Assembly: GCA_050952725.1 (NCBI GenBank)
Contig: JBMNLN010000001.1
Span: 415,638-479,637 of the forward strand
Source: Bacilli bacterium
Lineage (GTDB): Bacteria; Bacillota_I; Bacilli_A; RFN20; CAG-826
Direction of reading: 5' to 3'
DNA: 64,000 bases
Numbering within the stretch: position 1 is the first letter of the stretch; each line of letters opens with the position of its first letter. The notes beneath the pieces were generated by a model, which saw only the letters and a program-made list of their open reading frames with translations, had not been told where the DNA came from and ran no database searches. Positions 11,167 through 47,575 of this stretch are shown here, piece after piece. Both the position numbers and the translations under genes were made by a program.

Positions 11167-11167
11167 G

Positions 11168-12626: not shown

Positions 12627-13493
12627 TTATTTACTCCGATATTTCTTGCGATATTGATGGGGAGTGATATTTTCAACACTTTTAAACAAATTAATCAGAT
12701 GAGCAGTGGATTTAATTGAGCAGAGATCACCGATATAATCAAGGGAATAATCAGTTTCTTCAAGATAACGCTTAATTACCTCCACCATTTTTAATTTACG
12801 GTCATCACGTGGGGTGATTTTAAAGAATTCTTTATATTTGATGCCAAAATACGTTTCGGTAAAACCGATTGCTGCTGCCATTTTTCTCACGGTGTATTCA
12901 ATCGGGTTCGCATACATCAAACTCCGCACATTAACGAAAGAGGCTCTTAGACTTGAAGAAGAAAGAGAGCGGTTCAAGTTTAAACAACAAATACTCAAAG
13001 TTTTAAAAATTTTATCAATATATTCAGGAATTTTAGGAACAAGTGATTCCGCGTACGGAGTATTGACGATATAAGAGAGGCGATCCATATCAAAAACAAT
13101 CTTTTCGGCATCCTCTTTAGAAAGAGCAATAATGGTGTCAAAAGGAATCTTATAAGGAGTAAAAAAGGATTCTTTTTCGTCGATATACATGAAACTATTT
13201 AAAACTGGTGTCCCTCCACTTCGATATGCTTGTAAAGTCCCAGGTTTATAAAGAATAGCGCTATTTGAGGGAATTTTAAAATAACTTTCCCCATCATAGG
13301 AAAAGAGCATATCAGTCTGAAAAATTACCAATAAAAAAGCGGTCCCTGGAATGATTACTTTTTGATTATAATCACTAGGTTCAATTTTATTTGTGAGGAC
13401 GATTATTTTATGTTCGCTATCCACAATTGTAATTTTAATAGAAAAAAAACAATTTTCAAGATATAGAAAAACAATAATTTCACATTGAAACAC
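12627..13493 (-). CDS. AraC/XylS-family transcriptional regulator
   Basis: C-terminal AraC-type HTH (MYANPIEYTVRKMAAAIGFTETYFGIKYKEFFKITPRDDRKLKM). The start is uncertain because the track start abuts the divergent promoter. Confidence 0.7.
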   Translation of the reverse strand: MFQCEIIVFLYLENCFFSIKITIVDSEHKIIVLTNKIEPSDYNQKVIIPGTAFLLVIFQTDMLFSYDGESYFKIPSNSAILYKPGTLQAYRSGGTPVLNSFMYIDEKESFFTPYKIPFDTIIALSKEDAEKIVFDMDRLSYIVNTPYAESLVPKIPEYIDKIFKTLSICCLNLNRSLSSSSLRASFVNVRSLMYANPIEYTVRKMAAAIGFTETYFGIKYKEFFKITPRDDRKLKMVEVIKRYLEETDYSLDYIGDLCSIKSTAHLINLFKSVENITPHQYRKKYRSK

Positions 13494-18528: not shown

Positions 18529-18538
18529 AGAAGAAGAA

Positions 18539-19495
18539 ATGACAGCGACCACTCTGAAACGACATAAGCTTAATAAGAATTCGTTTGCTTATAAAATCAA
18601 AAAAGACTTTAAGAATAACCGCGGGTTGTATGCTTTGATTATCCCTGGATTTTTACTTTTAATTCTCTTTTCGTTCGTGCCGCTTTATGGTATTACGATG
18701 GCGTTTCAAAGATATGACTCCTCGTTAGGCGTCTTTGGTTCCCCTTTTATTGGTTTTGAAAACTTTCGCAGGTTTTTTAGCAGTCCTTATTTCTCAGAAA
18801 TTTTTAGAAACACTCTGCTTATCAGTCTTTTTTCCTTAGTGGTTGGTTTCGTTTTCCCTTTAATCTTCGCCCTGAGTTTGAATAGTGTAGAAAACTTACG
18901 CTTTAAAAAGTTTGTCCAGATGATTAGTTATGCCCCCTACTTTATTTCGGTGGTAGTTATCGTGGCGATGATTAATATTTTCTTTGATGGCGATAATAGT
19001 GTCTTTGCTAATTTTGTCCGGCTCTTTGGTGGGGAAGTGAAAAATAATCCTATAACCGATCCAAAGTCTTTCTACTCGCTTTATGTCTGGTCGGGGCTGT
19101 GGCAAATCTTGGGCTGGAATTCAATTATCTATGTCAGTGCGCTTTCCAGTGTATCCCCCGAACTATATGAGGCGGCAACTTTAGAAGGAGCCACTAAACT
19201 ACAGAAAATTTGGTATATCGAACTCCCGACGATTCTCCCGACAATTGTCACTTTATTAATCTTATCGGCAGGAAGTATCTTAGGGGTCGGATTTGAAAAG
19301 GTCTATTTAATGCAAAACGCAGATAATTTGGAAACTAGTGAAGTGATCTCGACTTATGTTTATAAAAAAGGCATTTTATCTTCGGATTACGGTCTTGGCA
19401 CCGCGGTTGGATTATTTAACTCGGTGATTAGTTTTTTGATGTTGATGATTGTTAATTTCTTCGCGAAAAAATTCACCAAGTATAGCGTGATTTAG
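18539..19495 (+). CDS. Carbohydrate ABC transporter permease (LplB/YtcP-like)
   Basis: 318 aa with multiple TM segments and the typical LplB N-terminus. Confidence 0.8.
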   Translation: MTATTLKRHKLNKNSFAYKIKKDFKNNRGLYALIIPGFLLLILFSFVPLYGITMAFQRYDSSLGVFGSPFIGFENFRRFFSSPYFSEIFRNTLLISLFSLVVGFVFPLIFALSLNSVENLRFKKFVQMISYAPYFISVVVIVAMINIFFDGDNSVFANFVRLFGGEVKNNPITDPKSFYSLYVWSGLWQILGWNSIIYVSALSSVSPELYEAATLEGATKLQKIWYIELPTILPTIVTLLILSAGSILGVGFEKVYLMQNADNLETSEVISTYVYKKGILSSDYGLGTAVGLFNSVISFLMLMIVNFFAKKFTKYSVI

Positions 19496-19497
19496 GA

Positions 19498-20442
19498 GTG
19501 GTTATGAATAACAGAGTAAAAATTAGCCCTTCTAATCCAGTGAAACGCAAGGGCAAAATTCAAAAATGTAAGCAGGATAAAATATTTAATGTGGTCAACA
19601 TTAGTATTCTTGTACTCTGCACGATAATCTTTCTTTATCCATTGATTTTTGTGGTTTCAGCCTCTTTTACCAAACCAAGTGATGTTCTAGCAGGGAGAAT
19701 GTTCCTTTTCCCAACTTCCTTATACTTCGAAGGTTACGAAGAAATTTTTAAATATGAAGGTTTGTGGAAAGGATTCATAAACTCGGTGATTATTGTCGTG
19801 TTTGGTAGCGCCCTCAATATGGCGGTGACTTTCACAGTAGGTTACGCATTAAGCAGAAGAGATTTCTATGGCAGAAAATTCTTTTTATTCTTCTTTATTT
19901 TCGCAATGTTTTTCTCGGGGGGATTGATACCTTTCTACTTGTTGGTAGCAAACACTTTAAGAATGAATGATTCCTTACTCGCTTTGATTATTCCAAGTGC
20001 AGTTAGCGTTTGGAACATTATTTTAGCGAAGACCTATTTCTCAAGTTCCTTATCCGAAGAATTATTAGAGGCGGCAAAAATTGATGGCTGTAGTAATCTT
20101 CGTTTCTTCTTTAGGATTGCACTCCCGCTTGCAAAACCGATTATTGCTGTCATTCTTCTCTATAACGTAGTTGGAAGATGGAATTCTTATTTTGATGCGC
20201 TAATTTTCTTACAAAATCCTGACAAATATCCCTTACAACTCGTAATTCGTAATTTGATTAGCCAAAACGATATTAGCACCATTGATCCTGGTGCTGGACA
20301 AATTACAATCGATAATATGTATCGGGTCGAAGGGATGAAATATGGAGTGATTATTCTCTCGACGATTCCGATGCTGGTTATATATCCATTTGTACAAAAG
20401 TACTTTATCAAAGGTATTATGGTGGGCTCACTTAAGGGCTAA
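19498..20442 (+). CDS. Carbohydrate ABC transporter permease (LplC/YteP-like)
   Basis: 314 aa. EAA-like loop (LLEAAKIDGCSNLRFFFRIALPLAKP). Confidence 0.8.
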   Translation: MVMNNRVKISPSNPVKRKGKIQKCKQDKIFNVVNISILVLCTIIFLYPLIFVVSASFTKPSDVLAGRMFLFPTSLYFEGYEEIFKYEGLWKGFINSVIIVVFGSALNMAVTFTVGYALSRRDFYGRKFFLFFFIFAMFFSGGLIPFYLLVANTLRMNDSLLALIIPSAVSVWNIILAKTYFSSSLSEELLEAAKIDGCSNLRFFFRIALPLAKPIIAVILLYNVVGRWNSYFDALIFLQNPDKYPLQLVIRNLISQNDISTIDPGAGQITIDNMYRVEGMKYGVIILSTIPMLVIYPFVQKYFIKGIMVGSLKG

Positions 20443-20448: not shown

Positions 20449-22053
20449 TTGATTATGAAACAGATGAAAATTTTAATTCCGAGTGCGGTTTTACTGGCGA
20501 CTTTATGTGCGTGTACTGGTCAGACCTCACAAAAATTACATTCGCATCCCGAAGTTTTAACTGAACCGGGCACTTTTCCGATCATCAAGGAAGAATATCG
20601 CGGCGAAGTCTCTTTAAAAATTATGGGAGCAAGCAACGCGGCGATTAATCCTGATTGGTCGAAGAACAAGTTCTTTATTAGGTTTAGCGAAGAAACTGGA
20701 GTTGATTTCACCTTCAATGTCTATGGCGATGGGATGTACAATGACAAGAAAGCTTTTGCTTTAGCGACCAATAATAATTTACCCGACATCTTTTTTAAAG
20801 CAGCGCTCAATAACTATGACGAAGTAACTTATGGGGGAAAAACCCTTCGCCCTTTAAATGATTTAATCGATGAATATGCCCCGAATATCAAACAATTATT
20901 AGAAGATAATCCGATTGTCAAAAAATCAATTACGACCACGGATGGAAATATTTATGCCCTTCCTACCATCTATACCAATCTTCCGAATAATACGACATCA
21001 AATATGCGCGGTTTCTTTTGGATTAATAAAGATTGGATGGGAACCACCCCGATGCCTAAAACACCCGCAGAATATAAAGCAATTTTACAAACCTTTCGAC
21101 AAGAACGATTAAAAATCCGCGACTCCTATCCTTTAGTGGTCGCGGGAATTGACGATTTGCTCAAAATTTTCAATTTCTTTGGACTCGATCTAGTCAACTA
21201 CTGGGTTCAAGGTGATGAAGATGGTCAATTAGTTTTTGGCCCGAAAACCGACAATTTCAAACAAGGATTAGCTTTTATCAAATCGTTAATTGATGACAAT
21301 TTGATGAACGCTAACTGGTCGACCATGGAAGCAGCCGAAATCAATGCCCGCGGAGCAAGCGGTGATTATTACGGCAGTTTCGTCCAAGCTGGTCCCCAAT
21401 TTGCAGTAGGGTTTAACAAGATGCGGCAATATACGACCCTTGATCCGCTTTCGGTCACTGGTGAAGGCGGTTTCTGGGGAGCAAAAAACCCATTGCAAAG
21501 AGGATGTTTTGCTTTGACTTATGAATGCAAATATCCGGAAGCGGCTATCCGTATGATGGATGCTTTATATGATATTGATGCCCCTTATGGCCTTTGGTCA
21601 TCAATCGGTAAAGAAAACGAAGAATGGCAATGGCTTGACGAAGAGCATACAGCTTGGAAATCGACAATTAGTGATAATCAATATTCAGAAGTGATGTCGA
21701 CCACCATTATCCAAACTGGTGATGGAATGCCTTATGCGATTGATGAGTCTTTTTGGGAAAAACAAGCAACAGAAACTGATACTTATACCCGACCGTTAAG
21801 AAATCGCCAGATGACATTTGGTAAAGTGGGCTACCCCGATGTTTATTTTGATTCAGTTCAATTGACGGAAATGGCAGATTTATCGACTGACATCAATACA
21901 CATATTACCCGTTATATTGCTGGTGTTTTAAACGGCTCAAAAAATCTCGAGGGTGATTGGGAGACCTTTATCAAATTTTCTCGTCTTAATCTCGATCGCT
22001 ATTTAGAAATTCTGCAAGAGCGTTACGATGATTTTAATCAAGCGATTCAATGA
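20449..22053 (+). CDS. Extracellular solute-binding lipoprotein (LplA-type, family 1 SBP)
   Basis: 534 aa, signal peptide ending in a Cys-containing lipobox region (LLATLCAC), size and composition typical of LplA-like SBPs. Confidence 0.7.
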   Translation: MIMKQMKILIPSAVLLATLCACTGQTSQKLHSHPEVLTEPGTFPIIKEEYRGEVSLKIMGASNAAINPDWSKNKFFIRFSEETGVDFTFNVYGDGMYNDKKAFALATNNNLPDIFFKAALNNYDEVTYGGKTLRPLNDLIDEYAPNIKQLLEDNPIVKKSITTTDGNIYALPTIYTNLPNNTTSNMRGFFWINKDWMGTTPMPKTPAEYKAILQTFRQERLKIRDSYPLVVAGIDDLLKIFNFFGLDLVNYWVQGDEDGQLVFGPKTDNFKQGLAFIKSLIDDNLMNANWSTMEAAEINARGASGDYYGSFVQAGPQFAVGFNKMRQYTTLDPLSVTGEGGFWGAKNPLQRGCFALTYECKYPEAAIRMMDALYDIDAPYGLWSSIGKENEEWQWLDEEHTAWKSTISDNQYSEVMSTTIIQTGDGMPYAIDESFWEKQATETDTYTRPLRNRQMTFGKVGYPDVYFDSVQLTEMADLSTDINTHITRYIAGVLNGSKNLEGDWETFIKFSRLNLDRYLEILQERYDDFNQAIQ

Positions 22054-24896
22054 GGCAAATTATGAAAAGGAAATTGCGATTATTTCTATTATTACCAATG
22101 ACAATTCTCGCTAGCTGCAATCAAAAAAAAGTTGGTTCAGAAAATTTTGCCTTGTCGTATAAAAAGGGTAGTAATGGTTATTTCATTGTTTTGAGTCGAC
22201 ATAACCAAACTTATACAACTGAGGGGGGATCGCTTGGAGTGCGTTTTGATAAAAATGAATTCCGAGCTGATGATCCGATTTTTAAGGACTATACCACGGT
22301 TGAAGAAGTGAATGGAGTTCTCTTAGCAAAAGGACAAGTAGCTTCTAATTATGGAACGACTATCGATTTTATTGATTCTTTCAAGGTGGTTTCAAATCGG
22401 CTCTTAGTCAATCGCGAATTCTCGGTTACTAATGCGGGTGAAGATTTTGGCTTCATGGTGGAACAAAAATGGTTAGATACCAAAGAAGGCAAAATTCATG
22501 ACCGTGAAGGGTTTATTCCTGCTTCCTATTATGTCAATGGCAATCGCTCCTTCAATGATTGTTCTACGCGGATGTTTTTCGGTGGGGATTTGCTGGTGAT
22601 TCCTAGTGATGCCGTCTCCGTTTTAATGGCGAGTTCCTTTAAGGATGGTGTGGCTTTTGCGATGCTTGATACTTCGAGTGGCTATCGCGAGACCTCGATC
22701 GTTGATCGTTATACAGTTGATTCAGCTTATTTACACATTGATGAGAATTTTAATTTTTCTGGCATTGCTCTTAGTAATGAAGAGAATAATCGCATCGCTT
22801 ATAATTACCTTTACCCTGCTTATAAAAATGCGAACGAAGATAGTTTTAATTATCGGCTCCTTCCAGTCGAAAAAGGCTTAAAACGCAAAGTGTCGTATTC
22901 GCTCTTTATCGATAAATTTAATTCCTACAACGAGATGTATACTTCAATGTGGCGAAGTGCCTACGATGTATATCGCTACCTTGATAAGCGTTATCAGATG
23001 CCTGAGGTTTATGAAACCCTTTTAAAATATGTTCGCGATTCTTATTCAGATAACAACATTTGGGGGCCGATTCCCTTATATTTCACCAATGCTGATCATT
23101 ATCATCCAGATAGCGGTTTCCTTTTCCGTAATCTGGAAATGGGAATGTTCATGATTAAATATGGGCGAAAAACTAATGATCAAACCACGATTGATAATGC
23201 TTTAAAGGTCATAAATTATCAATTAGACAATGATAGTATTGATGCGCGGTTACAACTCTATACGCGCGATAGCAGCGTCTTTAAGCGCACGATGTTTGAC
23301 GGCTTAACTAGCACAGTTAATTTATATGCTTATTTAAAAACGACATCTTTTGGTGATGAAGTGATGAAAACCTTGATGGAGAAACTCTTTAATTACATCA
23401 CCGTGAAAGCGGAATTGTATAAAAATGAAACTAGTTTAATGGCGCTATCTTTTTATTCTCGCCTCTACCAGTTAAAGGACTTATTGTTTCTCGATTACGA
23501 TCAGGTCGCATTGAGATTGGCGGAGGCCGCGATTGCCCAAACCAAAGAATACTCAGGCTACTTTGGTGCAATCGAAAATAAGGATACGCGAATTTCCGTC
23601 GCTGAAGATTATATGCTTTTACTACGAGGGTTGATGACAATTTATGAAACCAATCATAACACCCGTTATTTACGCGAAGCGATTCGCTTAGCGAATTATT
23701 TAGAAACATTTAATGTTTTGACCCCCATGAATATGAATCCAGTTGGCGCCACTGGGGCCGAAGGATATAACTTTGGTTTTATTGGCAATGAGCGATTTCT
23801 TGGTAATGGTTATGCTTTTAACAATACTAACCATGGAATTCTTGATTGCCCCACCTCAAGTACTGTGGTGGAGTATATGAAACTTTATAAATATACTGGT
23901 GATCAGCATTATTTAGATTTTGCGGAATTCAAATTTATCAACTCTCTCCTTTATGTCAACATGGGAGATAAAGTTGGTCATATGGATGATCCCCTTCACT
24001 CTTCGGGCAATGGATTTATCAATGAGTTTTGCGGGAATGCGACCACGATTGAAGGATATCGCGATGGCGGTATGCGCGGAGCGGTTCATGATTCGATTAT
24101 CCCGTGGAATGTATACGAATTACTCGTGGGATTTGAATATTTAAAAGAGAATAATTATCCAGGATTTGCTGAAGATTATTCCTTAAGTCATAATCTTGCC
24201 CGGAACAAAGTTGTTACAATTGCGAATGACAATCTCGCTCATTCAGTCGCTGAAGCCTTTGATAATTTAGAGGATTCTTTCTACTTCGCAAATGAAGCTA
24301 GTGAATTTATCCTTGATTTGAATGAACAATGTCATATTGATTCGATTGAAATCGAGGCGGAAAAGAATTTAAATGTCTATCAATCGAGTAACAACATCGA
24401 TTTTGAAGAAATAACTAATTTAACCAACCTCGAATTAAAAACTCGATATATCAAATTTGTCACTGAAGCCAATAACAAAATCAATAATATTCAAGTTAAC
24501 GGCTACCCAGTTCACTATCAAGATTTAGCGGTGGATAGTTTGGTTTTAAATAATGCTGGTTCGATGAGAAATGCGATTGATAAATCCAATTATCAAACAA
24601 TTTGGAATGCGGGAAGTAGTCAAGAAACGCACATTCTAACTCTAGATTTACTAAGTGAATGCGAAATCTATCAAACTGCACTTATGTTTTCGGAAATTTC
24701 TTCAACCGCTTTTAAAATTGAAACCTCGCTCAATGGTGAAAATTATGTTGAATACGCGCTCGAAGCAGGCGACCAAGATAAATATATCTTCGTCAATCGC
24801 GGCTACCAAAAGGCCCGTTATGTGCGATTAACCATCTTGTCCTCTTCGTTAGAAAACATTTTGGTAAGAGACTTTAAGGTATTAGGGAGCCGATAA
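22050..24896 (+). CDS. Large surface lipoprotein (948 aa), unknown function, possibly glycan-active
   Basis: Lipobox (TILASC) after a short N-terminal extension, ATGA overlap with the SBP gene. No motif I can name with confidence. Confidence 0.55.
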   Translation: MRQIMKRKLRLFLLLPMTILASCNQKKVGSENFALSYKKGSNGYFIVLSRHNQTYTTEGGSLGVRFDKNEFRADDPIFKDYTTVEEVNGVLLAKGQVASNYGTTIDFIDSFKVVSNRLLVNREFSVTNAGEDFGFMVEQKWLDTKEGKIHDREGFIPASYYVNGNRSFNDCSTRMFFGGDLLVIPSDAVSVLMASSFKDGVAFAMLDTSSGYRETSIVDRYTVDSAYLHIDENFNFSGIALSNEENNRIAYNYLYPAYKNANEDSFNYRLLPVEKGLKRKVSYSLFIDKFNSYNEMYTSMWRSAYDVYRYLDKRYQMPEVYETLLKYVRDSYSDNNIWGPIPLYFTNADHYHPDSGFLFRNLEMGMFMIKYGRKTNDQTTIDNALKVINYQLDNDSIDARLQLYTRDSSVFKRTMFDGLTSTVNLYAYLKTTSFGDEVMKTLMEKLFNYITVKAELYKNETSLMALSFYSRLYQLKDLLFLDYDQVALRLAEAAIAQTKEYSGYFGAIENKDTRISVAEDYMLLLRGLMTIYETNHNTRYLREAIRLANYLETFNVLTPMNMNPVGATGAEGYNFGFIGNERFLGNGYAFNNTNHGILDCPTSSTVVEYMKLYKYTGDQHYLDFAEFKFINSLLYVNMGDKVGHMDDPLHSSGNGFINEFCGNATTIEGYRDGGMRGAVHDSIIPWNVYELLVGFEYLKENNYPGFAEDYSLSHNLARNKVVTIANDNLAHSVAEAFDNLEDSFYFANEASEFILDLNEQCHIDSIEIEAEKNLNVYQSSNNIDFEEITNLTNLELKTRYIKFVTEANNKINNIQVNGYPVHYQDLAVDSLVLNNAGSMRNAIDKSNYQTIWNAGSSQETHILTLDLLSECEIYQTALMFSEISSTAFKIETSLNGENYVEYALEAGDQDKYIFVNRGYQKARYVRLTILSSSLENILVRDFKVLGSR

Positions 24897-24897: not shown

Positions 24898-25758
24898 ATG
24901 ACGATTAAAGATATTTATATGCGCGATCCATTTGTTTTTGTGGAGAACGGAACCGCCTACTTAATCGGTACAAGTGATGAAAATATTTGGAGTGGAAAAG
25001 CCGATAGTTTTCTCGGCTATAAATCAACGGATTTAGTAAATTTTGAAGGACCTTATGTTTTATTTAAAAACACCGATGATTTTTGGGCGGATGAAAATTT
25101 TTGGGCGCCTGAACTGCACAAAATCGATGGGAAATATTATATATTTGCTTCTTTTAAAAACGTTGATCGCCCTCGCGCTTCCCAAGCTTTAGTTGCCTCA
25201 ACTCCTTTTGGAAAATATACTCCACTTGCAAAACCTTTTACTCCGAAAGACTGGGAATGTTTAGATGCGACTTACTTCGAAGAAAATGGTCGAAAATATA
25301 GCATTTTTTGCCGAGAATGGCTCCAAGTTCACGATGGTGAAATTTGTGTTGGAGAATTAAATGATGATTTAACCGAACTTAAAAACATTAAAAAACTCTT
25401 TAAAGCAAGTGACGCCCAATGGGCCCAATATTTCTATAACGGAGATGATAAAAACAAAAAGTATGTCACTGATGGTCCATTTATTTATCAATGTGAAAAT
25501 GGGCGATTATTGATGCTTTGGTCATCAAATGGAAAAGAAGGATATGCCCTTGGAGTCGCTTATAGCGATAACGGAATTTTAGGAGAATGGAAACAATTAG
25601 AGGAACCACTCTTCAAAGATGATGGTGGTCATGGAATGATTTTTTCTTTTCAGGGAAAGAAATATCTCATTCTCCATACCTCGAATAAAACGCCGCTCTC
25701 TGAACGTCCCTACCTTATTGAAGTTATCGAAGAAAATAACATGATTAAAATTAAATAG
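24898..25758 (+). CDS. Glycoside hydrolase family 43 enzyme (arabinofuranosidase/xylosidase-type), cytoplasmic
   Basis: 286 aa. GH43 five-bladed propeller signatures (RDPFVF ... FWAPELHKIDGKYYIF ... DGPF). No signal peptide. Confidence 0.75.
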   Translation: MTIKDIYMRDPFVFVENGTAYLIGTSDENIWSGKADSFLGYKSTDLVNFEGPYVLFKNTDDFWADENFWAPELHKIDGKYYIFASFKNVDRPRASQALVASTPFGKYTPLAKPFTPKDWECLDATYFEENGRKYSIFCREWLQVHDGEICVGELNDDLTELKNIKKLFKASDAQWAQYFYNGDDKNKKYVTDGPFIYQCENGRLLMLWSSNGKEGYALGVAYSDNGILGEWKQLEEPLFKDDGGHGMIFSFQGKKYLILHTSNKTPLSERPYLIEVIEENNMIKIK

Positions 25759-25769: not shown

Positions 25770-28700
25770 ATGCTGAAAATTAAAAAAAACCTCATGATCT
25801 TTTTATTTATCGGGTTGATATCGAGTTGTGGTGGCGGATCAAGCGCGATAGACAGCATTGTTATTGATGATATTGATTATACAGTTTCATATTACTTTGA
25901 AACTCTACAAGGGGAGTATGTTATCAATGACGAGTACACCTTGAATAAAACCGGAAAAGAGGGTAGTCCCATCAATATTGATATTCGCGAGTTTGAAGGT
26001 TTTACCTTTGATGAATATCATCCTTCAAATAAAACAGAAGGCACTTTATCTAGCGGAACATCGATTTTTGCTCTTTATTATTTACGAAATTCATACGATG
26101 TTGTGGTTTTGGGCGGCGAAGCCTCTAAGGCTATCGCTAAATTCGAAGAGACCATTACTATTACCCCATATCTTGGTGGGACTTCCATCACTTTAAATGA
26201 CAATTCCAAAGCCACACTCAATGGTCATGAGCTGACCCTAGGAGCAGAAGATGTCACAGTCATGTGTTTAACTCAAAATAAATATTCACTCAGCGATACC
26301 CTTCTTACTAAAGAGCGAGATTATTCAGCAAGTGTCAATCTTACTGTAAAAGAAAAAGACAACATTCAAGGCTTGGTGTTTAGTTTTATTTCTAAAAATC
26401 TCTCTGATGATGGACACGAGCAATTCTACCTCTTTGGCACCCGCAATGATGAAGTTGGTTTTTATCGTTATTCGGGCGGTTCGCTCAATCTAATTAAATC
26501 AAAAGTTATGACTGAGTTTGAACTCGGAAGCCACAAATATGCGATTAACTTTATGGAAACAGGAAGTATTAGATGTTTTATTGATGATATTAGCATCTTT
26601 AATGTCACCCAAGATGAAATCGTAAACCAAGGCTTTGCCCCAATTGATAGTTATGGAAGAGTAGGGGTTTACTCGCAAAAACAGTATTTTGAATATCAAA
26701 ATTTAATCGCGGAAAATCAAGTGGTCAGTTTAGAAGAAGCAAAGCAATATTACATCGACAAATATAATAAATTTATTTTTTCCCAACATGTTTTTGACAC
26801 CGCGACTTACACAATGAATGATGGAGATGTTCAGATTGACATTAAAGATGTCAAAGGATATGCCTTAAATGCCATCGAACTAGAGGAGAACATCAACGCG
26901 GCAAATAATCTACAAGAAATTGATACTGCTCTTGATGGTTATAACGAAATTAGAATAGCTGCAGCAAAAGCATACACCCAAACGCATTTACTTGAACTTC
27001 TTTACGATGTTCATTATGCCACCATCATGCTTTATGCAACCAAACATCAAACAAAATATTATGATTCGGCCACTACATTAGATCTTAGTTATTTAGTACG
27101 AGATGAAAGACAATACGTTCCTAGTGCTTACAAACTACGCGGAAGTGAAGGTGAAACTTGTCTTTTAGATCAATTGGATGTCGATCTTAATAAAGCGAAA
27201 ACCGAGCGAGAAATATATGTGATTTCTAACAAATATGCACTCGATTTAGTGCGAGCTTTGAGTTTTAGAAATTATGAATTCTATTATTGGAATCAATATC
27301 ATCAGTATCCCGGTTCTAATTATCAAGTTTGGGATATGCATTTTTATAATTATTTTGGTGCTGCTGGAAGTGGATTTAAGTATGTTGGAAAAGTATTTGA
27401 AGGTTTTACTTGGTCCAAAGATTTCCGTTTGAATCGCTTCCTTTTTAATCCCGATGAACCTAACTATGCAAAGACGATTCAAGAAGTTATCGGCATGACT
27501 GATTGGATGATTAAACACCAAACAATTCGGTCGCGACCTTATATAGTTACTTTGAATGCTGACGGGGGCACGTTAACAAACTATGAGTTAAATGGAACTT
27601 CGGCCAATGCACTCGTCCTACCAACTCCAAGCAAGGAAGGACATGTTTTTGATGGATGGTATCTCAACCGTCTTTTAAAAGGGACGAAACTCACTTCGGT
27701 GCCGCAAGGAAATTTGGAAGATAAAACCTTGTATGCTGCGTGGAAAAAAGATGGTGTTCGAGTCGAAAGCGTTATTCAACCTGCAGCCTACATTACGGAA
27801 AATATGATTATCCAACAAAATCAAGATATTGTTTTTTCAGGAAAAGGGAAAGATGGCGTTAATGTCACGGTCAGTTTCGATGGTGAAAACAAAACCACAG
27901 TGATTAGCGATTCAAAGTGGCAAGTTACTTTTACACCACGTCAGGCCGCATTTGATCCAAAGATTATCTCGATTAGCGGTGGCGGCGTAACTTATGCCTT
28001 TAAAAATGTTCTCGTGGGCGAAGTTTGGCTCTGCGCTGGCCAAAGCAATATGGAAATGCTCGCCTGCTGGCTCAATGGTCGGGGGGTGAAATACGCAGGA
28101 CAATACGGTGACTTTGATAATCTCGACAAAATCAGAGTATTTAGACAATATATCGATGATTTAGATCCTTTCGCTCAATTAAATGCTGATAACGATCGCT
28201 GGTGCATTCCAACTCGCGCTATGGATTTGGCGGATAAATCAATTTTATCAGTCGCCTTTGCTTGTAATTTACAAAAAGAACTCAACATCCCTGTTGGCGT
28301 TTTAACAAGTGCGCGTGGTGGCACCTATATTGAAGAATGGCTAAGCGAGGAAAATGTTAACCTGACAGGCAATACAATTCCTGCCCCCCATCAAGATATC
28401 GCTTCCCGCTATTATGAACAGATGACAGTTGATTTAATTAATGCGCGTTTGGCCGGGGTTATCTGGTATCAAGGTGAAAATAACTGGCCATATCCAGAAA
28501 TCTACAAAGGTCAATATAAGGCATTGGTTAGTCAATACCGAGACGTATTCAATAACCCGAACCTGCCAGTAATCGCCCAACAAATTGTTGATTATGGTGA
28601 AAATGATGCTGATTTTTCTGACATTAGAATTGCCCAATGGGAAGTGGCAGGAGAAATCGCAAACGCTTATTGCTCAGTAGCCATTGATACGGGGGAAAAG

Positions 28701-29081
28701 TATGACATTCATCCGATTGACAAACTAACTCTCGGTAGAAGAATGGGAAAAATTGCTCTTGAATTCGCCTATGGAGTGGGCAGCGATTCATTATCTTACG
28801 CTCCCATCAAGGCCGAAGTAATCGAAGGAAAGATTCGCATTTCCTTCAAAGAGGGTCAAATTATTCAATCGGGTGAAGAACTGCAGTTTTTCAAATTAAA
28901 AAAAGTCGACGGCACCTTCGTTTCGGTCACGGCGACATTAGAAAACAATCAAATTGTAATCGAAGATATCGATGATGCAGAGATGGTTTATTATGCGCAT
29001 CAACATTGGTTAGGACATGTCACCCTTTACGGGGGGAATGACTTGCCAATAACTCCGTTTAAAATCAATATTACAAGATGA
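25770..29081 (+). CDS. Giant lipoprotein paralog A: Listeria-Bacteroides (Flg_new) repeat plus SASA/DUF303-type carbohydrate esterase domain
   Basis: Lipobox LISSCGGGSS. Flg_new repeat (TLNADGGTL ... PTPSKEGHVFDGWY ... TLYAAWKKD). Esterase block VWLCAGQSNMEM at about aa 745. Confidence 0.75.
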   Translation: MLKIKKNLMIFLFIGLISSCGGGSSAIDSIVIDDIDYTVSYYFETLQGEYVINDEYTLNKTGKEGSPINIDIREFEGFTFDEYHPSNKTEGTLSSGTSIFALYYLRNSYDVVVLGGEASKAIAKFEETITITPYLGGTSITLNDNSKATLNGHELTLGAEDVTVMCLTQNKYSLSDTLLTKERDYSASVNLTVKEKDNIQGLVFSFISKNLSDDGHEQFYLFGTRNDEVGFYRYSGGSLNLIKSKVMTEFELGSHKYAINFMETGSIRCFIDDISIFNVTQDEIVNQGFAPIDSYGRVGVYSQKQYFEYQNLIAENQVVSLEEAKQYYIDKYNKFIFSQHVFDTATYTMNDGDVQIDIKDVKGYALNAIELEENINAANNLQEIDTALDGYNEIRIAAAKAYTQTHLLELLYDVHYATIMLYATKHQTKYYDSATTLDLSYLVRDERQYVPSAYKLRGSEGETCLLDQLDVDLNKAKTEREIYVISNKYALDLVRALSFRNYEFYYWNQYHQYPGSNYQVWDMHFYNYFGAAGSGFKYVGKVFEGFTWSKDFRLNRFLFNPDEPNYAKTIQEVIGMTDWMIKHQTIRSRPYIVTLNADGGTLTNYELNGTSANALVLPTPSKEGHVFDGWYLNRLLKGTKLTSVPQGNLEDKTLYAAWKKDGVRVESVIQPAAYITENMIIQQNQDIVFSGKGKDGVNVTVSFDGENKTTVISDSKWQVTFTPRQAAFDPKIISISGGGVTYAFKNVLVGEVWLCAGQSNMEMLACWLNGRGVKYAGQYGDFDNLDKIRVFRQYIDDLDPFAQLNADNDRWCIPTRAMDLADKSILSVAFACNLQKELNIPVGVLTSARGGTYIEEWLSEENVNLTGNTIPAPHQDIASRYYEQMTVDLINARLAGVIWYQGENNWPYPEIYKGQYKALVSQYRDVFNNPNLPVIAQQIVDYGENDADFSDIRIAQWEVAGEIANAYCSVAIDTGEKYDIHPIDKLTLGRRMGKIALEFAYGVGSDSLSYAPIKAEVIEGKIRISFKEGQIIQSGEELQFFKLKKVDGTFVSVTATLENNQIVIEDIDDAEMVYYAHQHWLGHVTLYGGNDLPITPFKINITR

Positions 29082-29175
29082 TAAATAAGTAACATCGATA
29101 AGTTGATAAGGTTTTTTAAAAAACACAAGCAATCCTGACAACGTAGAAGCAAATAACAGATAGGGAGGAATTGGT

Positions 29176-32100
29176 ATGTCGAAATCTAAAAAGCATTGGA
29201 CAATATTTTTGCTTATTGGTCTGCTATCAAGTTGTGGTGGCACAAGCACGATTGATAGCGTGGTCCTTAATAATGTAGATTATACAGTTTCTCATTATTT
29301 TGAAACTCTAGAGGGAGAATATGTCATAAATGATGAGTATACACTTCATCGAACAGGAAAAGCGGGCAGTAAAATCACTGCGGATATTCGAGAATTCGAA
29401 GGTTTCACGTTTGATGAATATCATCCTCTAAATAAAACCGAAGGCATTTTATCTAATGAAGGATCTACTTTTTCCCTTTACTACTTAAGAAATTCATATA
29501 ACATTGTGGTTTTCGGTGGTGAAAGTTCAAAAACTACGGCTAAATTTGAAGAAACAGTTACCATTACCCCATATCTAGGCGGAAGTTCGATTACCTTGAA
29601 TGATAATGCTAAAGCTACGCTTAATGGTAACGAATTAACTCTAGGAGCGGAGGATGTAACCGTCATGTGTTTAATCGAAAATAAATATTCACTCAGCCCC
29701 ACCATTCTCACCAAAGAAAATGATTTTTTAGCCAGTGTAGATATTAACGTGAAGGAAAAGAGCAATTTACAAGGACTAGTTTTCAGTTTTGTCTCTAGAA
29801 TTTTTTCCAAGGAAGGGCAAGATCAATATTATCTTTTAGGAACGAATAATAATGAAGTTGGTTTTTATTATCATTCGGGTGGTTCGCTCAATTTAATTAA
29901 GTCTAAGGCTCTAGTCGATTTTGAACTGGGAAATCATAAATACGCGATTAATTTTATGGCGAATGGAAATATAAGATGTTTCCTCGATGATATTAATATC
30001 TTAAGCGTTACCCAAGAGGAAATTATCGCTCAAGGCTTTGAGCCCATCGGTGATTATGGACGAGTTGGGGTTTATTCTAATAAACGCTATTTTGAATATC
30101 AAAATCTAAGCGCAGAAAATCAAGTGGTCGGTTTGGAAGAGGCCAAGGAATATTACATTAACAAATACAATAAATTTACCTTTTCTCAACACGCTTTCAG
30201 TTCAATAGATTACAAAGTTAGCGAAGGCGATGTTCAGATCGACATTAAAGATGTCAAAGAGTATGCCTTAAATGCGATCGAGCTCGAGAATAGCATTCAC
30301 ATGGCGAATAATTTACAAGAAATTGATGCCGCTTTTGATGGTTATCACACCATTCGAATGGCCGCGGCAAAAGTTTATACGAAGACGCATTTGCTCGAAC
30401 TGCTTTATGATATTCATTACGCTACCGTTATGCTCTATGCGACTAAACATCAAACTCAATATTTTAATTTTACCCAAACATTAGATCTTGATTATTTAGC
30501 AAGAGATGAGAGAAGTTTTGTACCAAGCGCTTATAAACTTCGGGGGAGCGAAGATGAAGTGTGTCTCTTGGATCAATTAGAAATCGATCTCAACAAAGCA
30601 AAAACCGAACGGGAAATATATGAGATTTCCGACAAATATGCGCTCGATTTAGTACGAGCGATGTGTTTTCGAGATTATGAATTTTATTATTGGAATCAGC
30701 ATCATCAATATCCCGACTCCAATTATCCAGTTTGGGGGGTACATTTCTATAACTATTATGGGGCTAATGGTTCAGGCTTCAAATATGTCGGAAGAGTATT
30801 TGAAGGATTTAGATGGAACAAAGATTTCCGTTTGAATAAATTTCTTTTCAATCCTGATGAGCCGAATTTTGCCACCACGATTAAGGGAATAATCAACATG
30901 GTCGATTGGATGATTAGAAACCAAACCATTAAAGCTCGTCCCTACACCGTAACTTTAAACGCTGATGGTGGCACCCTTGAAAACTATGAACTAAGTGGCA
31001 CTTCAGAAAACGCCTTGCCCCTCCCTACTCCTAGTAAGGAGGGTTACACCTTTGATGGGTGGTATCTCAACCGGCTGTTTGTGGGAACGAAATACACCTC
31101 TATTCCTAAAGGTAATTTGGAAAACAAAACTTTGTATGCCGCTTGGAAAAAAGATGGGGTAAGAGCAGAAAGCATGATTCAACCAGCGGCTTATATCACA
31201 GAAAACATGATTATCCAGAGGAATCAAGAAATTATTTTCTCAGGTAAAGGTCAAAACGGCATTAGTATCAATGTGAATTTTGACGGAGAAAATAAAACCA
31301 CAGTTGTCAATGATGCGAAGTGGAGCGTTACTTTTTCAGCCCGTCAAGCTTCCTTTGAGCCAAAGGTTATCACAATCACTGGTGCAGGTATCACTTACAC
31401 CTTTAACAATGTTATTATTGGCGAAGTGTGGCTTTGCACGGGGCAAAGTAATATGGAAATGCTCGCCTGTTGGCTCAATGGGCGCGGAACTAAATATATA
31501 GGACAATATGGCGAATTTGACAATTTGGCTAAAATTAGGATGTTTAGACAATTTGTCGATGATGTCAATCCCTTTGAACAAAGCAATGGCGATAATGATC
31601 GCTGGTGCATTCCCACACGGGCGATTGACTTATCAGACAAGTCCATCTTAGCGGCTGCCTTTGCCTGTAATTTACAAAAAGCACTCGATATTCCCGTCGG
31701 GGTTCTCATCAGTTCTCGTGGCGGAACATTTATCGAAGAATGGCTCAGTCAGGAAAATGTCAATCTTACAGGTAATACGATTCCCGCAAGTCATCAACAC
31801 ATTACTTCGCGGTACTATCAACAAATGACTCTAGATCTTATCAATGCGCGTTTTGCTGGGGTTATTTGGTATCAAGGCGCTAATAATTGGGCTCATGCCG
31901 AAACGTATAAAGGACAATATAAAGCGCTTGTTAATCAATTCAGGGAAATGTTTGGTGCGAACTTACCGATTATCGCCCAACAAGATGTGGATTGTGGTGT
32001 TACTTCTCACGATAAAAAAGATATCAGAATCACCCAATGGGAAGTGGCAGGAGAAATTGAAAATGCTTATTGCTCAGTGTCTATCGATACTGGAGAAAAA

Positions 32101-32481
32101 GATGATGTCCACCCAATTGATAAATTGACTCTCGGTAGGAGAATTTGTAATATTGCGTTAGAATTTGTTTATGGTATTGGTAATGACTCCCTATCTTATG
32201 CTCCAATTAAAACTGAAGTGATTGAAGGGAAGATTTATGTTTCTTTCAAAGAGGGACAAACCATTAAATCAAATGGAGAATTGCAGTATTTTAAACTGAA
32301 AAAAGCTGATGGCGAATTCATCTCAGTACCAGCCATTTTAGAGAACAATAAAATCGTGATTGATGATGTTGAGGGGGCAGTCATGGTTTATTACGCCTAT
32401 CAACAGTGGCTAGGAAATATCACACTCTACGGAGGAAATGACTTACCGATTACTCCGTTTAGAATAAACATCACAAGGTAA
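29176..32481 (+). CDS. Giant lipoprotein paralog B (tandem duplicate of 25770..29081)
   Basis: Collinear with paralog A over about 1100 aa, with the same lipobox, Flg_new repeat and GQSNMEM block. RBS AGGGAGG. Confidence 0.75.
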   Translation: MSKSKKHWTIFLLIGLLSSCGGTSTIDSVVLNNVDYTVSHYFETLEGEYVINDEYTLHRTGKAGSKITADIREFEGFTFDEYHPLNKTEGILSNEGSTFSLYYLRNSYNIVVFGGESSKTTAKFEETVTITPYLGGSSITLNDNAKATLNGNELTLGAEDVTVMCLIENKYSLSPTILTKENDFLASVDINVKEKSNLQGLVFSFVSRIFSKEGQDQYYLLGTNNNEVGFYYHSGGSLNLIKSKALVDFELGNHKYAINFMANGNIRCFLDDINILSVTQEEIIAQGFEPIGDYGRVGVYSNKRYFEYQNLSAENQVVGLEEAKEYYINKYNKFTFSQHAFSSIDYKVSEGDVQIDIKDVKEYALNAIELENSIHMANNLQEIDAAFDGYHTIRMAAAKVYTKTHLLELLYDIHYATVMLYATKHQTQYFNFTQTLDLDYLARDERSFVPSAYKLRGSEDEVCLLDQLEIDLNKAKTEREIYEISDKYALDLVRAMCFRDYEFYYWNQHHQYPDSNYPVWGVHFYNYYGANGSGFKYVGRVFEGFRWNKDFRLNKFLFNPDEPNFATTIKGIINMVDWMIRNQTIKARPYTVTLNADGGTLENYELSGTSENALPLPTPSKEGYTFDGWYLNRLFVGTKYTSIPKGNLENKTLYAAWKKDGVRAESMIQPAAYITENMIIQRNQEIIFSGKGQNGISINVNFDGENKTTVVNDAKWSVTFSARQASFEPKVITITGAGITYTFNNVIIGEVWLCTGQSNMEMLACWLNGRGTKYIGQYGEFDNLAKIRMFRQFVDDVNPFEQSNGDNDRWCIPTRAIDLSDKSILAAAFACNLQKALDIPVGVLISSRGGTFIEEWLSQENVNLTGNTIPASHQHITSRYYQQMTLDLINARFAGVIWYQGANNWAHAETYKGQYKALVNQFREMFGANLPIIAQQDVDCGVTSHDKKDIRITQWEVAGEIENAYCSVSIDTGEKDDVHPIDKLTLGRRICNIALEFVYGIGNDSLSYAPIKTEVIEGKIYVSFKEGQTIKSNGELQYFKLKKADGEFISVPAILENNKIVIDDVEGAVMVYYAYQQWLGNITLYGGNDLPITPFRINITR

Positions 32482-32496: not shown

Positions 32497-33984
32497 ATGG
32501 CAACATTAAAATTTATTGACGTCAATAAGATTTACCCAAATAATGTACATGCGGTTTTCGATTTTAATTTGGAAGTAAAGGATAAAGATTTTATCGTTTT
32601 TGTGGGGCCTTCGGGCTGCGGAAAATCCACGACCTTACGGATGGTCGCTGGGCTAGAAGAAATTACCTCAGGCGAAATTTATATCGATGATGTGCTCATC
32701 AATGAAGTTCCTCCTAAAGATCGCAATATCGCGATGGTCTTCCAAAACTATGCACTTTATCCCCATATGACCGTTTTCGATAATATGGCTTTTTCTCTTA
32801 AGTTACGAAAAGAAGAATTTCCAGTGATTGATATCGACTATGATAATCCTGACTATCAAAGAAGGTATCAGGAATTAGTCGCGGCTTTGCAAAAAGAAAC
32901 GGATGAAGGGGTTGCCGAAATCAAAAAAGAAGGCGATAGTAAAAAGCGCAAAAGTACCAAAGACCAAATTAAAGAATATGTCTTTATCCAAAGTAATAAA
33001 TTACTAGCGGAAACGAAGAAACTTCAAGATGAATATTCATCGCAACGGATGACTTATGATGAAGAAAAAGTTAATCAATTAATGGAAGAATACCGCGCGT
33101 TAGTCACTGCTCAAGAAAAAGATGAAGTGGCAATTGCCGCCAAAATTAATGAGATCAAAACCGCCAAAGAAGAAAGGGTAAAACCTAAATTTATCACTCG
33201 GCGTTACAGCAAGGATGAAATTGCCGAAAAAGTTGCCAACGCGGCCGACATTCTTGGATTAACCCCTTACTTAAAGAGAAAACCTGCCGCATTAAGCGGA
33301 GGGCAAAGACAACGAGTGGCCCTCGGTCGCGCCATCGTGCGCAACCCGAAAGTGTTTTTAATGGATGAACCCTTATCCAACCTCGATGCAAAACTACGCG
33401 TACAAATGCGCAGTGAAATCGCCAAAATCCACAAATTCGTCGGAGCGACCACCATTTATGTAACTCATGACCAAACCGAAGCGATGACCATGGCAAGTCG
33501 CATCGTCTGTATGAAAGATGGATACATTCAACAAATTGGCACCCCGAAGGAATTATTTAATACTCCAGCCAATATGTTTGTCGCGTCATTTATCGGCAAT
33601 CCAGCGACCAACCTTATTCATGGAAAATTTGATGGTAAAAGTTTTGTGGTCGAAGGTGAAGATTTCAAAATTGATTTGCCCCCAGAAATGATTAAAAAAC
33701 TCAAAAAGTACGTTAATAAGGAAATCGTTTTAGGAGCAAGACCAGAAGATATCTATGTTTTTGATGATGAAGCGGTGAAAAATCCATCCAACATTTTCGA
33801 ATTAACTTGTGATATTTCTGAACTTCTCGGAAGAGAATTAGTTATTTATAACCAAATTGGCGACCAAAGGATTATCATTAAGACGACAAAAAGGGATGAT
33901 ATCGTTTCGGATAGCAAAGAAAAATATGTGCTCGATTTATCATTGATTCACTTCTTTGATCCTGAGACCACGAATCGCATCTAA
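32497..33984 (+). CDS. MsmX/MalK-like sugar ABC transporter ATPase with a ~140-aa charged insertion
   Basis: Walker A GPSGCGKST, Q-loop MVFQNYALYPHMTV, signature LSGGQRQRVALGRA, Walker B FLMDEPLSNLD, H-loop VTHDQ, C-terminal MalK-like regulatory domain. A Lys/Glu-rich insert lies between the Q-loop and the signature. Confidence 0.85.
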   Translation: MATLKFIDVNKIYPNNVHAVFDFNLEVKDKDFIVFVGPSGCGKSTTLRMVAGLEEITSGEIYIDDVLINEVPPKDRNIAMVFQNYALYPHMTVFDNMAFSLKLRKEEFPVIDIDYDNPDYQRRYQELVAALQKETDEGVAEIKKEGDSKKRKSTKDQIKEYVFIQSNKLLAETKKLQDEYSSQRMTYDEEKVNQLMEEYRALVTAQEKDEVAIAAKINEIKTAKEERVKPKFITRRYSKDEIAEKVANAADILGLTPYLKRKPAALSGGQRQRVALGRAIVRNPKVFLMDEPLSNLDAKLRVQMRSEIAKIHKFVGATTIYVTHDQTEAMTMASRIVCMKDGYIQQIGTPKELFNTPANMFVASFIGNPATNLIHGKFDGKSFVVEGEDFKIDLPPEMIKKLKKYVNKEIVLGARPEDIYVFDDEAVKNPSNIFELTCDISELLGRELVIYNQIGDQRIIIKTTKRDDIVSDSKEKYVLDLSLIHFFDPETTNRI

Positions 33985-33986: not shown

Positions 33987-34313
33987 ATGTTGGCTCTATT
34001 TGAAAAGTATTCGCAAACCAGCGAAGAAAGAAAACACAAAATTCATCCTCTCTTAATCAATAAGAGTGCTTATTTAGTCTTTGATAAAATTGCCAAATAT
34101 CTCGCAGAAGAAGGGTATGCAAATCTTACCCTCAACAAGAACTTTTTAGAAATCTACTGCACGGATTACGGTTTTGAAATCACAGTTATCGTTTCCAGTG
34201 AAGATGAGGCTACTGCTTTAGTCAATGCCTCGGTTTATGGGGAAAAGAAACGCGGTAGAACCAGAAGCAGGCTCAAGAAATTCATCTTAGAGATTGATCG
34301 GTTATTCGTTTAA
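33987..34313 (+). CDS. Hypothetical 108-aa protein co-transcribed with the ATPase
   Basis: The ORF starts 3 nt after the ATPase stop and a terminator follows. No motif. Confidence 0.45.
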   Translation: MLALFEKYSQTSEERKHKIHPLLINKSAYLVFDKIAKYLAEEGYANLTLNKNFLEIYCTDYGFEITVIVSSEDEATALVNASVYGEKKRGRTRSRLKKFILEIDRLFV

Positions 34314-34316
34314 GAA

Positions 34317-34350
34317 AAACGCGAACCCCGTTAAAGGTTCGCGTTTTTTT
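34317..34350. terminator. Bidirectional rho-independent terminator
   Basis: AACGCGAACC-ccgttaaa-GGTTCGCGTT perfect 10-bp stem followed by T7, with an A-tract upstream. Sits between convergent genes. Confidence 0.85.
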
Positions 34351-43384: not shown

Positions 43385-43418
43385 AAAAGGCTCCATTATT
43401 TGAAGCCTTTTTTGGTAA
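43384..43418. terminator. Bidirectional terminator between convergent manA and the SGNH hydrolase
   Basis: AAAAAGGCT-ccattatttga-AGCCTTTTT plus T-run. The loop overlaps the stop of the minus-strand gene. Confidence 0.5.
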
Positions 43419-47561: not shown

Positions 47562-47575
47562 AAGGATATCTCCAA

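Follow-up and report, generated by a model that had tools for sequence, protein, structure and literature searches.

Two adjacent genes, here called est1 (25770..29081, + strand) and est2 (29176..32481, + strand), lie in a 64,000-nucleotide stretch of a Bacilli bacterium contig (GCA_050952725.1, JBMNLN010000001.1, positions 415,638 to 479,637), which is the whole of the DNA analyzed and is referred to as the window. They encode predicted lipoproteins of 1103 amino acids (aa) (NCBI MGI6713832.1) and 1101 aa (MGI6713833.1), respectively, whose C-terminal parts are assigned by homology to carbohydrate esterase family 20 (CE20). Both were named 'sialate O-acetylesterase' in the source annotation (PGAP). 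As an earlier first-pass annotation of this DNA had stated, the genes are collinear paralogs of ~1100 residues; both open reading frames (ORFs) are intact, and the proteins align end to end with 821/1103 identical residues (74%), two one-residue gaps, and an E-value of 0. Nucleotide identity in the codon alignment is 74.3%. The ribosome-binding site of est1 is AGGAG, 9 nt upstream of the start, and that of est2 is GGGAGG, located inside the 94-nt spacer between the two genes (29082..29175, + strand). A terminator-like hairpin was looked for in this spacer and none was found, and promoter-like matches within it reach only 9/12, no better than shuffles.

Architecture of est1 and est2

Both N-termini contain a basic n-region, a hydrophobic h-region, and a lipobox (MLKIKKNLMIFLFIGLISS and MSKSKKHWTIFLLIGLLSS, each directly followed by the Cys). 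Lipoproteins were recognized by the lipobox pattern [LVI][ASTVI][GAS]C within the first ~25 residues, after the n- and h-regions. The signal peptide and lipobox ISSC of est1 occupy 25770..25829 (+ strand), with the Cys20 codon at 25827-25829, and the signal peptide and lipobox LSSC of est2 occupy 29176-29235, with the Cys20 codon at 29233-29235. A Cys is found at the equivalent N-terminal place in all family members. The lipid anchor that had been proposed earlier is predicted by this signal in both copies.

The fusion of a Listeria-Bacteroides repeat to a SASA domain was also borne out, as both domains score above the Pfam curated cut-offs in both proteins. The repeat is present as a single copy in each. 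In est1, Flg_new (PF09479) covers residues 591-656 (27540..27737, + strand; E 1.6e-9, 38.1 bits), and in est2 it covers residues 590-655 (30943-31140; E 5.8e-14, 52.4 bits; cut-off 27). TIGR02543 also matches, with 32.8 bits in est1 and 39.6 bits in est2 (cut-off 20.95). SASA (PF03629) is matched by residues 751-981 of est1 (E 1.2e-18, 68 bits) and 750-979 of est2 (E 1.1e-14, 55 bits; cut-off 24.8), and the esterase motifs named in the first-pass annotation, VWLCAGQSNMEM and VWLCTGQSNMEM, were found in the sequence.

The esterase assignment is made more specific by phmmer homology of the C-terminal core to PDB chains whose CE20 status is taken from the literature (PMC12313940). There, the CE20 core is defined as a β-sandwich, an SGNH domain, and a second β-sandwich, and its catalytic elements are the Ser of GQSNM, the Gly of block II, and the His of DxH (PMC12313940). 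The corresponding core spans residues ~665-1103 of est1 (27762..29078, + strand) and 31165-32478 in est2. Its best PDB matches are 9EGA (PpCE20_II; E 4.8e-38), 7KMM (XacXaeA, the founding CE20 member and a xyloglucan acetylesterase; 1.8e-30), and 9H4U (Fl8CE20_II; 3.3e-30), and these CE20 chains are followed by the chains 8F9O-R of sialic acid esterase (SIAE) type at E ~1e-20, 8F9O being the dog sialic acid esterase (PMC12313940).

The alignment to 9EGA falls into two pieces, with query residues 674-863 matching chain residues 28-211 and query residues 879-1099 matching chain residues 412-642 of 644. Between them, 15 query residues (864-878) stand against ~200 residues of 9EGA (212-411). In XacXaeA, Fl8CE20_II, and PpCE20_II, an ancillary β-sandwich of ~200 aa, X448, is located at this site inside the SGNH domain, between blocks II and III, where it forms the cleft and a water-mediated triad (PMC12313940). 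The family alignment has only a short variable loop where X448 would insert. Since only 15 residues occupy the insertion site, the ancillary domain is absent from est1 and est2, and the proteins belong with the ancillary-less CE20s.

Catalytic roles can be assigned by homology to Fl8CE20_II, in which the catalytic positions are S112, G199, D513, and H515 (PMC12313940). In est1 the corresponding codons are Ser759 (28044..28046), Gly850 (28317-28319), Asp979 (28704-28706), and His981 (28710-28712), and in est2 they are Ser758 (31447-31449), Gly849 (31720-31722), Asp977 (32104-32106), and His979 (32110-32112), all on the + strand. Block I is intact in both copies (GQS759NM and GQS758NM) and is the same in all nine full-length family members. 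Block II of est1, RG850GT, aligns to VGGT of 9EGA, and block V reads D979-I-H981 in est1 and D977-V-H979 in est2. Ser, Gly, and His are invariant in 9/9 full-length members, and the DxH Asp is kept in 7/9, the others having Glu or Asn. With E-values of 5e-38 to 3e-30 to crystallized CE20s and intact catalytic residues, the C-terminal part of each protein is predicted to be an SGNH/SASA-type carbohydrate O-acetylesterase, as the first-pass annotation had suggested, and its ~440 residues are read as a CE20 esterase lacking the ancillary insert.

Thus, est1 and est2 share with XacXaeA, Fl8CE20_II, and PpCE20_II a homologous core with the GQSNM Ser, the block II Gly, and DxH, as well as a location in polysaccharide-utilization loci. 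However, those enzymes, of which Fl8CE20_II acts on acetyl-xylan, are ~640-aa periplasmic or outer-membrane-associated proteins from Bacteroidota and Pseudomonadota that work with SusC/D or TonB systems, whereas est1 and est2 encode 1100-aa Bacilli lipoproteins with an ABC (ATP-binding cassette) importer and a 660-aa N-terminal extension, and identity between the two groups is ~30% or less. Mammalian SIAE (8F9O-R) and the 460-520-aa bacterial 'sialate O-acetylesterases' share the ancillary-less ~440-aa CE20 core, with alignment from end to end. Such short ancillary-less CE20 proteins are common in the protein database. The nearest of them are only 26-38% identical, and neither the N-terminal module nor the Flg_new repeat nor the lipid anchor is present in SIAE or these bacterial proteins.

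A long-standing duplication under purifying selection

The first-pass annotation had read the pair as a recent duplication in which near-identical DNA alternates with diverged stretches, followed by diversification of the kind seen under selection for substrate breadth or antigenic variation. Comparison of the two genes by the Nei-Gojobori method yields pS (the proportion of synonymous differences) of 0.70, a synonymous distance (dS) of ~2, which is saturated, a nonsynonymous distance (dN) of 0.155, and a dN/dS ratio (ω) of 0.079. Such a synonymous distance contradicts a recent event. A pairwise dN/dS calculation along both genes had been recommended by the same annotation, and it indicates purifying selection throughout: ω is ≤0.16 in every domain and in every 100-codon window, with the lowest value, 0.04, in the SGNH domain. 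A copy-1 protein from an independent JGI metagenome is identical to est1 at 1102/1103 residues, and a Logan contig that may share the source sample has the same tandem layout with 0 mismatches over 4312 nt. Diversification, antigenic variation, and selection for breadth are not supported by these values.

The alternation of near-identical and diverged stretches was not seen either. Identity per 50 codons ranges only from 0.63 to 0.83, and its variance in 150-nt windows is no different from that under permutation (p = 0.35). est1 and est2 share no identical run longer than 25 nt; codon-column permutations average 24.3, and 39% of them reach this length. With DNA that is 26% diverged and no identical tract beyond chance length, the proposal that the repeat serves as a substrate for homologous recombination lacks support as well. 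Gene conversion between the two copies was considered and ruled out because there is neither an excess of long identical tracts nor excess heterogeneity of identity.

Given the saturated dS and an ω of 0.08, est1 and est2 are an old duplicate pair under purifying selection. They are not recently duplicated, diversifying, or recombining surface antigens, and the earlier evolutionary reading should be dropped.

The N-terminal region and the distribution of the family

The N-terminal 590 residues make up more than half of each protein and are its unusual part, which the first-pass annotation overlooked. They have no Pfam or NCBIfam assignment except for a sub-threshold MucBP match. Three parts can be distinguished. 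Residues ~30-170 of est1 (25857..26279, + strand; est2 29260-29682) form two small β-rich modules of MucBP or InlB B-repeat type according to profile searches. Residues ~175-320 (26292..26729, + strand; est2 29695-30132) form a ConA-like β-sandwich of the CBM66/galectin kind, and residues ~321-588 (26730..27533, + strand; est2 30133-30936) an α/β domain with long helices, as delimited in an AlphaFold2 model.

Searched with a profile of the N-terminal region, a set of 1.84 billion representative proteins yielded 540 matches. For most of the best 150 of these, the match is confined to profile positions ~30-165; they are giant multi-repeat surface proteins, 1000-6800 aa long, in which Flg_new, Flg_new_2, and MucBP occur. 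MucBP itself scores above the cut-off in the family member P0008 and weakly in est2. The module formed by residues 180-588 is present in only ~12 clusters, defined at 50% identity, among the representatives searched.

Residues 170-592 have no sequence match in Pfam, NCBIfam, or the PDB. An AlphaFold2 model of this segment built from 14 family sequences reached a mean pLDDT (predicted local distance difference test) of 90.3 and a pTM (predicted template modeling score) of 0.83. A model of residues 1-590 from four sequences reached a pLDDT of only 56 and was not used. In the confident model, residues ~175-320 adopt a ConA-like β-sandwich fold that can be superimposed on CBM66 of the Bacillus subtilis levanase SacC (4B1M/4AZZ) and resembles galectin-type lectins. 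Since identity is 13-17% and there is no sequence-family match, the domain is called CBM66-like only, not CBM66. It is modeled as packed against the helical domain, which CBM66 lacks. The helical domain comprises ~270 residues, with helices of 30 residues in the model, and has a conserved aromatic-rich core (RD.R.YVP.AYKL ... EYYYW ... WWFLYTY). No structural match to it was found among the matches listed, which are dominated by β-sandwich matches, and a known fold may exist. Any function given to it is pure inference.

The N-terminal module also occurs alone. In the locus L011, a 594-aa ORF with its own stop codon (18487-20271) is located between the genes for the solute-binding protein (SBP) and the F5/8C protein and encodes a lipoprotein without the Flg_new and CE20 parts; the same locus also encodes the full-length esterase P0015. 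P0011 and P0013 are likewise stand-alone proteins, giving a size range of 594-603 aa. Based on this stand-alone occurrence, the N-terminal module is taken as an autonomous surface unit that is probably glycan-binding.

Besides est1 and est2, the full-length members are P0003, P0004, P0008, P0012, P0015, P0017, and P0025, all of which have the Flg_new and SASA tail and a lipoprotein-type N-terminus. The full-length proteins carry one to three N-terminal β modules, and clusters of the family hold 1-10 sequences. When the GTDB species representatives were scanned with the alignment of the N-terminal module, no member of the family turned up; matches were limited to B-repeat/MucBP-like segments in three unrelated metagenome-assembled genomes, and this collection apparently does not include the source genome.

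To assess synteny, the proteins of the operon were used as tblastn queries on the loci that hold family members. The arrangement recurs in further Bacilli known from metagenomes: in L008, L010/L012, and L011, the esterase adjoins a block made up of the permeases, the SBP, and an F5/8C protein of ~950-1020 aa, and L010/L012 also hold GH42, AraC, GH43, and galK/galT. An AraC homolog adjoins the syntenic locus in L010, and Pfam AraC-family genes are found near the esterase in L009 and L011. In L003, MalK and orf108 flank P0003, and orf381 is also shared. P0012 (1268 aa) and P0025 (1302 aa), which are 42% identical, flank a single AraC-GH42-ABC-F5/8C-GH43-galKT locus on one contig (GCA_054297995.1, JAZOXZ010000007.1; L010 10001-13807 and L012 10001-13909). 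In a neighbor-joining tree, est1 and est2 are sisters with 100% bootstrap, as are P0012 and P0025. Thus, the esterase was duplicated and retained independently at least twice. The est1/est2 duplication is lineage-specific but old, and the P0012/P0025 duplication is older still.

Operon context, probable substrate, and proposed division of labor

est1 and est2 sit in a 12-gene AraC-linked operon, in which all genes from 13538 to 34313 are on the + strand with gaps of ≤15 nt, or ≤11 nt among the genes upstream of est1, except for the est1-est2 spacer. The AraC-family regulator is divergent (12627..13493, - strand; Pfam), and araB, araD, and araA are directly upstream of the operon. The first gene encodes a 1004-aa lipoprotein with a Big_3 domain (13538-16552; Pfam, lipobox). 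It is followed by a GH42 β-galactosidase of glycoside hydrolase (GH) family 42 (16561-18528; Pfam, PDB match), two ABC permeases (18539-19495 and 19498-20442; Pfam), a 534-aa lipoprotein SBP (20449-22053; Pfam/PDB, lipobox), a 948-aa lipoprotein with two F5/8C domains and an N-terminal region without family (22050-24896; Pfam, lipobox), and a GH43 enzyme (24898-25758; Pfam), for which the top PDB match bears the name 'endo-arabinase' (E 1e-51). After est2, a 495-aa MalK/UgpC-type ABC ATPase (32497-33984) and the 108-aa orf108 (33987-34313) form the downstream end, and the first strong terminator hairpin in the operon is found at 34313-34350 (+ strand). Lipoboxes are present in five operon proteins, and GH42 and GH43 have no signal peptides. 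Pfam scans of most ORFs of ≥150 aa in the 64-kb window detected no GH33 sialidase, no nanA, nanK, or nanE, and no sialate transporter, and Rfam detected no RNA family in the window.

The two extracellular partners have few recognizable features. In the 1004-aa lipoprotein, the sole one is Big_3 (residues 534-594), and a truncated ORF beside P0008 (L009) matches this protein weakly, at 25% identity. The 948-aa lipoprotein consists of a ~700-aa N-terminal region and a C-terminal F5/8C pair that is CBM32-like, and its counterparts in three other loci, which are 35-42% identical to it, are likewise syntenic with the esterase family. Searches of the PDB and NCBIfam with each of the two proteins alone and with a 4-sequence profile gave matches only for F5/8C (CBM32) and Big_3; the N-terminal region of the 948-aa protein has sub-threshold matches to GH127 and YihS-like (α/α)6 folds. 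Its conserved synteny with the esterase makes it a candidate new glycoside hydrolase family.

Some details of neighboring genes were also recorded. The MalK/UgpC-type ATPase has 495 aa instead of the usual ~360, and its ABC_tran match is split (residues 22-132 and from ~234), which indicates a ~100-residue insertion within the nucleotide-binding domain. The araA ORF (11090-12562, + strand) overlaps araD (10468-11166) by 77 nt, and its AraA_N match begins at residue 29; translation of araA therefore probably begins at an internal Met close to residue 27.

The likely explanation of these observations is that est1 and est2 are long-retained paralogs from a rare family of large surface lipoproteins, that their CE20 cores de-O-acetylate an acetylated arabinose- and galactose-containing plant-type glycan, and that the two copies divide the labor. 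The proteins would be tethered outside the cytoplasmic membrane through lipidated Cys20, as the lipobox suggests. The N-terminal ~590 residues, with adhesin-type β modules, the CBM66/galectin-like β-sandwich, and the rigid helical domain, may hold and position the polysaccharide and space the enzyme off the membrane, a role suggested by their folds and their stand-alone occurrence. By homology, the CE20 core would hydrolyze O-acetyl esters, with Ser759 as nucleophile, His981 as base, and the Gly850 backbone and the Gln of GQSNM forming the oxyanion hole. Deacetylation could then open the glycan to the co-encoded 1004-aa and 948-aa lipoproteins. From the gene context, the lipoprotein SBP would bind the products, the ABC permeases with the MalK-like ATPase would take them up, and cytoplasmic GH42 and GH43 would cleave the imported oligosaccharides to galactose and arabinose, the latter feeding into araBDA. 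A glycan-import operon, a predicted lipoprotein, and an esterase core together make deacetylation at the surface before import the best reading, and in this part the first-pass annotation is upheld. The sialic acids that it had included among the substrates are the least likely of those it listed, because the Pfam scans detected no sialidase or nan gene in the 64 kb and araBDA, GH42, and GH43 are adjacent.

Several points weigh against this explanation. Classical arabinogalactans are not known to be prominently acetylated. The extracellular partners have no assignable catalytic family, so the glycan backbone is not indicated, and the gene neighborhood of the homolog P0004 (L001) is unrelated. 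CE20 is polyspecific, with activity on xylan, xyloglucan, pectin, RG-II, mannan, sialate, and host glycans (PMC13450560), and the substrate is not readable from the family. For the division of labor, the faster change of est2 in the SGNH domain described below is not significant with P0003 as outgroup (13 vs 18), and the placement of the divergent loops near the active site is drawn from alignment.

The main alternative for the presence of two copies is that they are functionally redundant and retained for dosage, providing more surface esterase without division of labor. In agreement with this, all catalytic motifs are intact in both copies, ω is uniformly low, the two copies have diverged almost equally overall (69 vs 79 unique changes, outgroup P0003), and the genes are probably co-transcribed, given that no terminator separates them. 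However, 25% amino acid divergence at saturated dS implies very long co-retention, and a second independent duplication has been kept in another lineage at 42% identity. Within the SGNH domain, est2 appears faster with P0004 as outgroup (6 vs 21 changes, χ² 8.3), and it has altered sites that are conserved in the family, namely E903A in the QGENN block, L939D, and Y942C. The loop at 940-951 is charge-reversed (DYGENDADFSD in est1 vs DCGVTSHDKKD in est2). In the other pair, P0012 and P0025 differ by a 19-residue indel exactly at the site where the ancillary domain of other CE20s is inserted. The SGNH changes in est2 and the P0012/P0025 indel are hints of specialization, not proof; being derived changes that the alignment places near active-site loops, those in est2 hint at a division of labor. 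Dosage is regarded as rather unlikely, and division of labor, for example between different acetyl positions or sugar contexts, as the most likely reason for two copies.

With regard to substrate, it could be proposed that est1 and est2 encode true sialate 9-O-acetylesterases that prepare host mucin or sialoglycans for sialidase, with the MucBP-like, galectin-like, and F5/8C modules targeting mucus. GH42 enzymes can act on mucin-core disaccharides, and this counts in favor of such a role, as do the SASA match, the homology to mammalian SIAE structures (E ~1e-20), the source annotation, the MucBP-like and galectin-like modules, and the CBM32-type F5/8C domains of the neighboring gene. Against it, GH33, nanA/K/E, and a sialic-acid transporter are lacking in the Pfam scans of the 64 kb, the neighbors are araBDA, GH42, and the GH43 with its endo-arabinase match, and the solved structures nearest to est1 and est2 are those of plant-glycan CE20s rather than SIAE. 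The SASA Pfam domain is common to plant-glycan esterases and is not diagnostic of the substrate. Sialic acids are the substrate of SIAE, and the est1/est2 locus gives no support for these. Since CE20 is polyspecific, the name given by PGAP says little about the substrate, and the CE20 name is no more informative. This host-glycan role is considered improbable, 'sialate O-acetylesterase' is very probably a misnomer, and the substrate is probably the acetylated arabinose- and galactose-containing plant-type glycan rather than sialoglycans.

A role primarily as adhesins or surface glycan-binding proteins with a vestigial esterase domain is very improbable. More than half of each protein does consist of non-catalytic, binding-type modules, and the N-terminal module exists alone as a 594-603-aa protein, but the strongest constraint falls on the SGNH domain (ω 0.04), the catalytic Ser, Gly, and His are invariant, and the DxH Asp is kept in 7/9 family members. 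The earlier model, in which a recent tandem duplication under diversifying or antigenic selection leaves near-identical tracts that give rise to deletions or chimeras, accords with the direct tandem arrangement and surface location and is scarcely credible in view of dS ~2, ω 0.08 with no window above 0.16, uniform identity with a longest run of chance length, and the near-invariant metagenome copies, one of them possibly from the same sample.

A division of labor between est1 and est2 can be compared with a known pair. RiCE2 and RiCE17, reportedly described by La Rosa in 2019 and Michalak in 2020, are said to be a complementary esterase pair in the mannan locus of Roseburia intestinalis, co-encoded acetylesterases in a Gram-positive glycan locus with an ABC importer, both reportedly retained because they act on different acetyl positions. 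RiCE2 and RiCE17 belong to different CE families and are not paralogs, whereas est1 and est2 are both CE20 and 74% identical, and the likeness may serve as a working model. For the operon, the closest parallel is with the galactan (gan) operons of Bacillus and Geobacillus, which have GH42, an SBP, and two permeases, the ATPase being shared or nearby. In both, GH42 is coupled to a CUT1-type ABC importer and to a regulator of transcription, and imported galacto-oligosaccharides are, or are predicted to be, trimmed in the cytoplasm. Unlike the gan operons, the est1/est2 locus has no GH53 endo-galactanase and instead has two unassigned lipoproteins (1004 and 948 aa), GH43, and two CE20 esterases.

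The CE20 family and the logic of a surface esterase in a glycan locus are already known. What is new is the rare ~660-aa N-terminal extension with its CBM66-like and unassigned helical domains, the occurrence in uncultured Bacilli, the conserved partnership with putative glycanases lacking a family, and the recurrent duplication. A broader proposal is that in uncultured Bacilli the ~420-residue CBM66-like and helical unit is an undescribed glycan-capture or 'stalk' module at the surface, either fused to CE20 or present as a stand-alone ~600-aa lipoprotein, that together with the ~950-aa lipoprotein, which is strictly syntenic, it marks a new type of Gram-positive polysaccharide-utilization locus, and that the esterases are regio-specialized. 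This combination is put forward only tentatively, its being wrong the likelier outcome. If it were true, the ~950-aa lipoprotein would possibly comprise an (α/α)6 catalytic region and two CBM32-like domains, and the target would be an acetylated arabinose- and galactose-containing glycan without a known degradation pathway.

CE20 is a recent addition to CAZy, dating from 2021. It comprises 12 clades (PMC13450560), and for most of these no substrate is known. The characterized bacterial members (7KMM, 9H4U, and 9EGA) come from Bacteroidota and Pseudomonadota, and est1 and est2 represent a CE20 branch in uncultured, small-genome Bacilli, located in a conserved ABC-type glycan locus. Characterization of the pair could reveal what an uncharted CE20 branch acts on, show whether tandem paralogs divide acetyl positions between them, and open a way to the putative glycanases of 948 and 1004 aa. 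The relevance lies in the annotation of carbohydrate-active enzymes (CAZymes) and is of moderate interest to specialists in these enzymes; no long-standing open question is touched.

Other genes in the window also relate to glycan use. A second glycan-utilization operon (46119-63636, - strand) encodes a GFO/IDH/MocA oxidoreductase, a 622-aa SBP, two permeases, a 650-aa GH43, GH2, and 864-aa, 590-aa, and 480-aa proteins without assigned function. It also encodes a 986-aa SASA protein (60676-63636, - strand) that is remote to est1 and has B-repeat-like segments. Being the third protein with a SASA domain in the window, it was examined as a possible additional paralog, but its match to est1 is only a local one of 23% identity (E 0.003), and the idea was rejected. 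Two adjacent GDSL/SGNH esterase genes (43396-44043 and 44077-44685, both - strand) encode proteins of 215 and 202 aa with no obvious signal peptides, and this tandem pair may carry out cytoplasmic deacetylation of imported oligosaccharides. Between two sugar-metabolism clusters, a 409-aa protein (39297-40526, + strand) with an MrcB-like N-terminal domain and NOV_C looks like the product of a restriction or defense gene.

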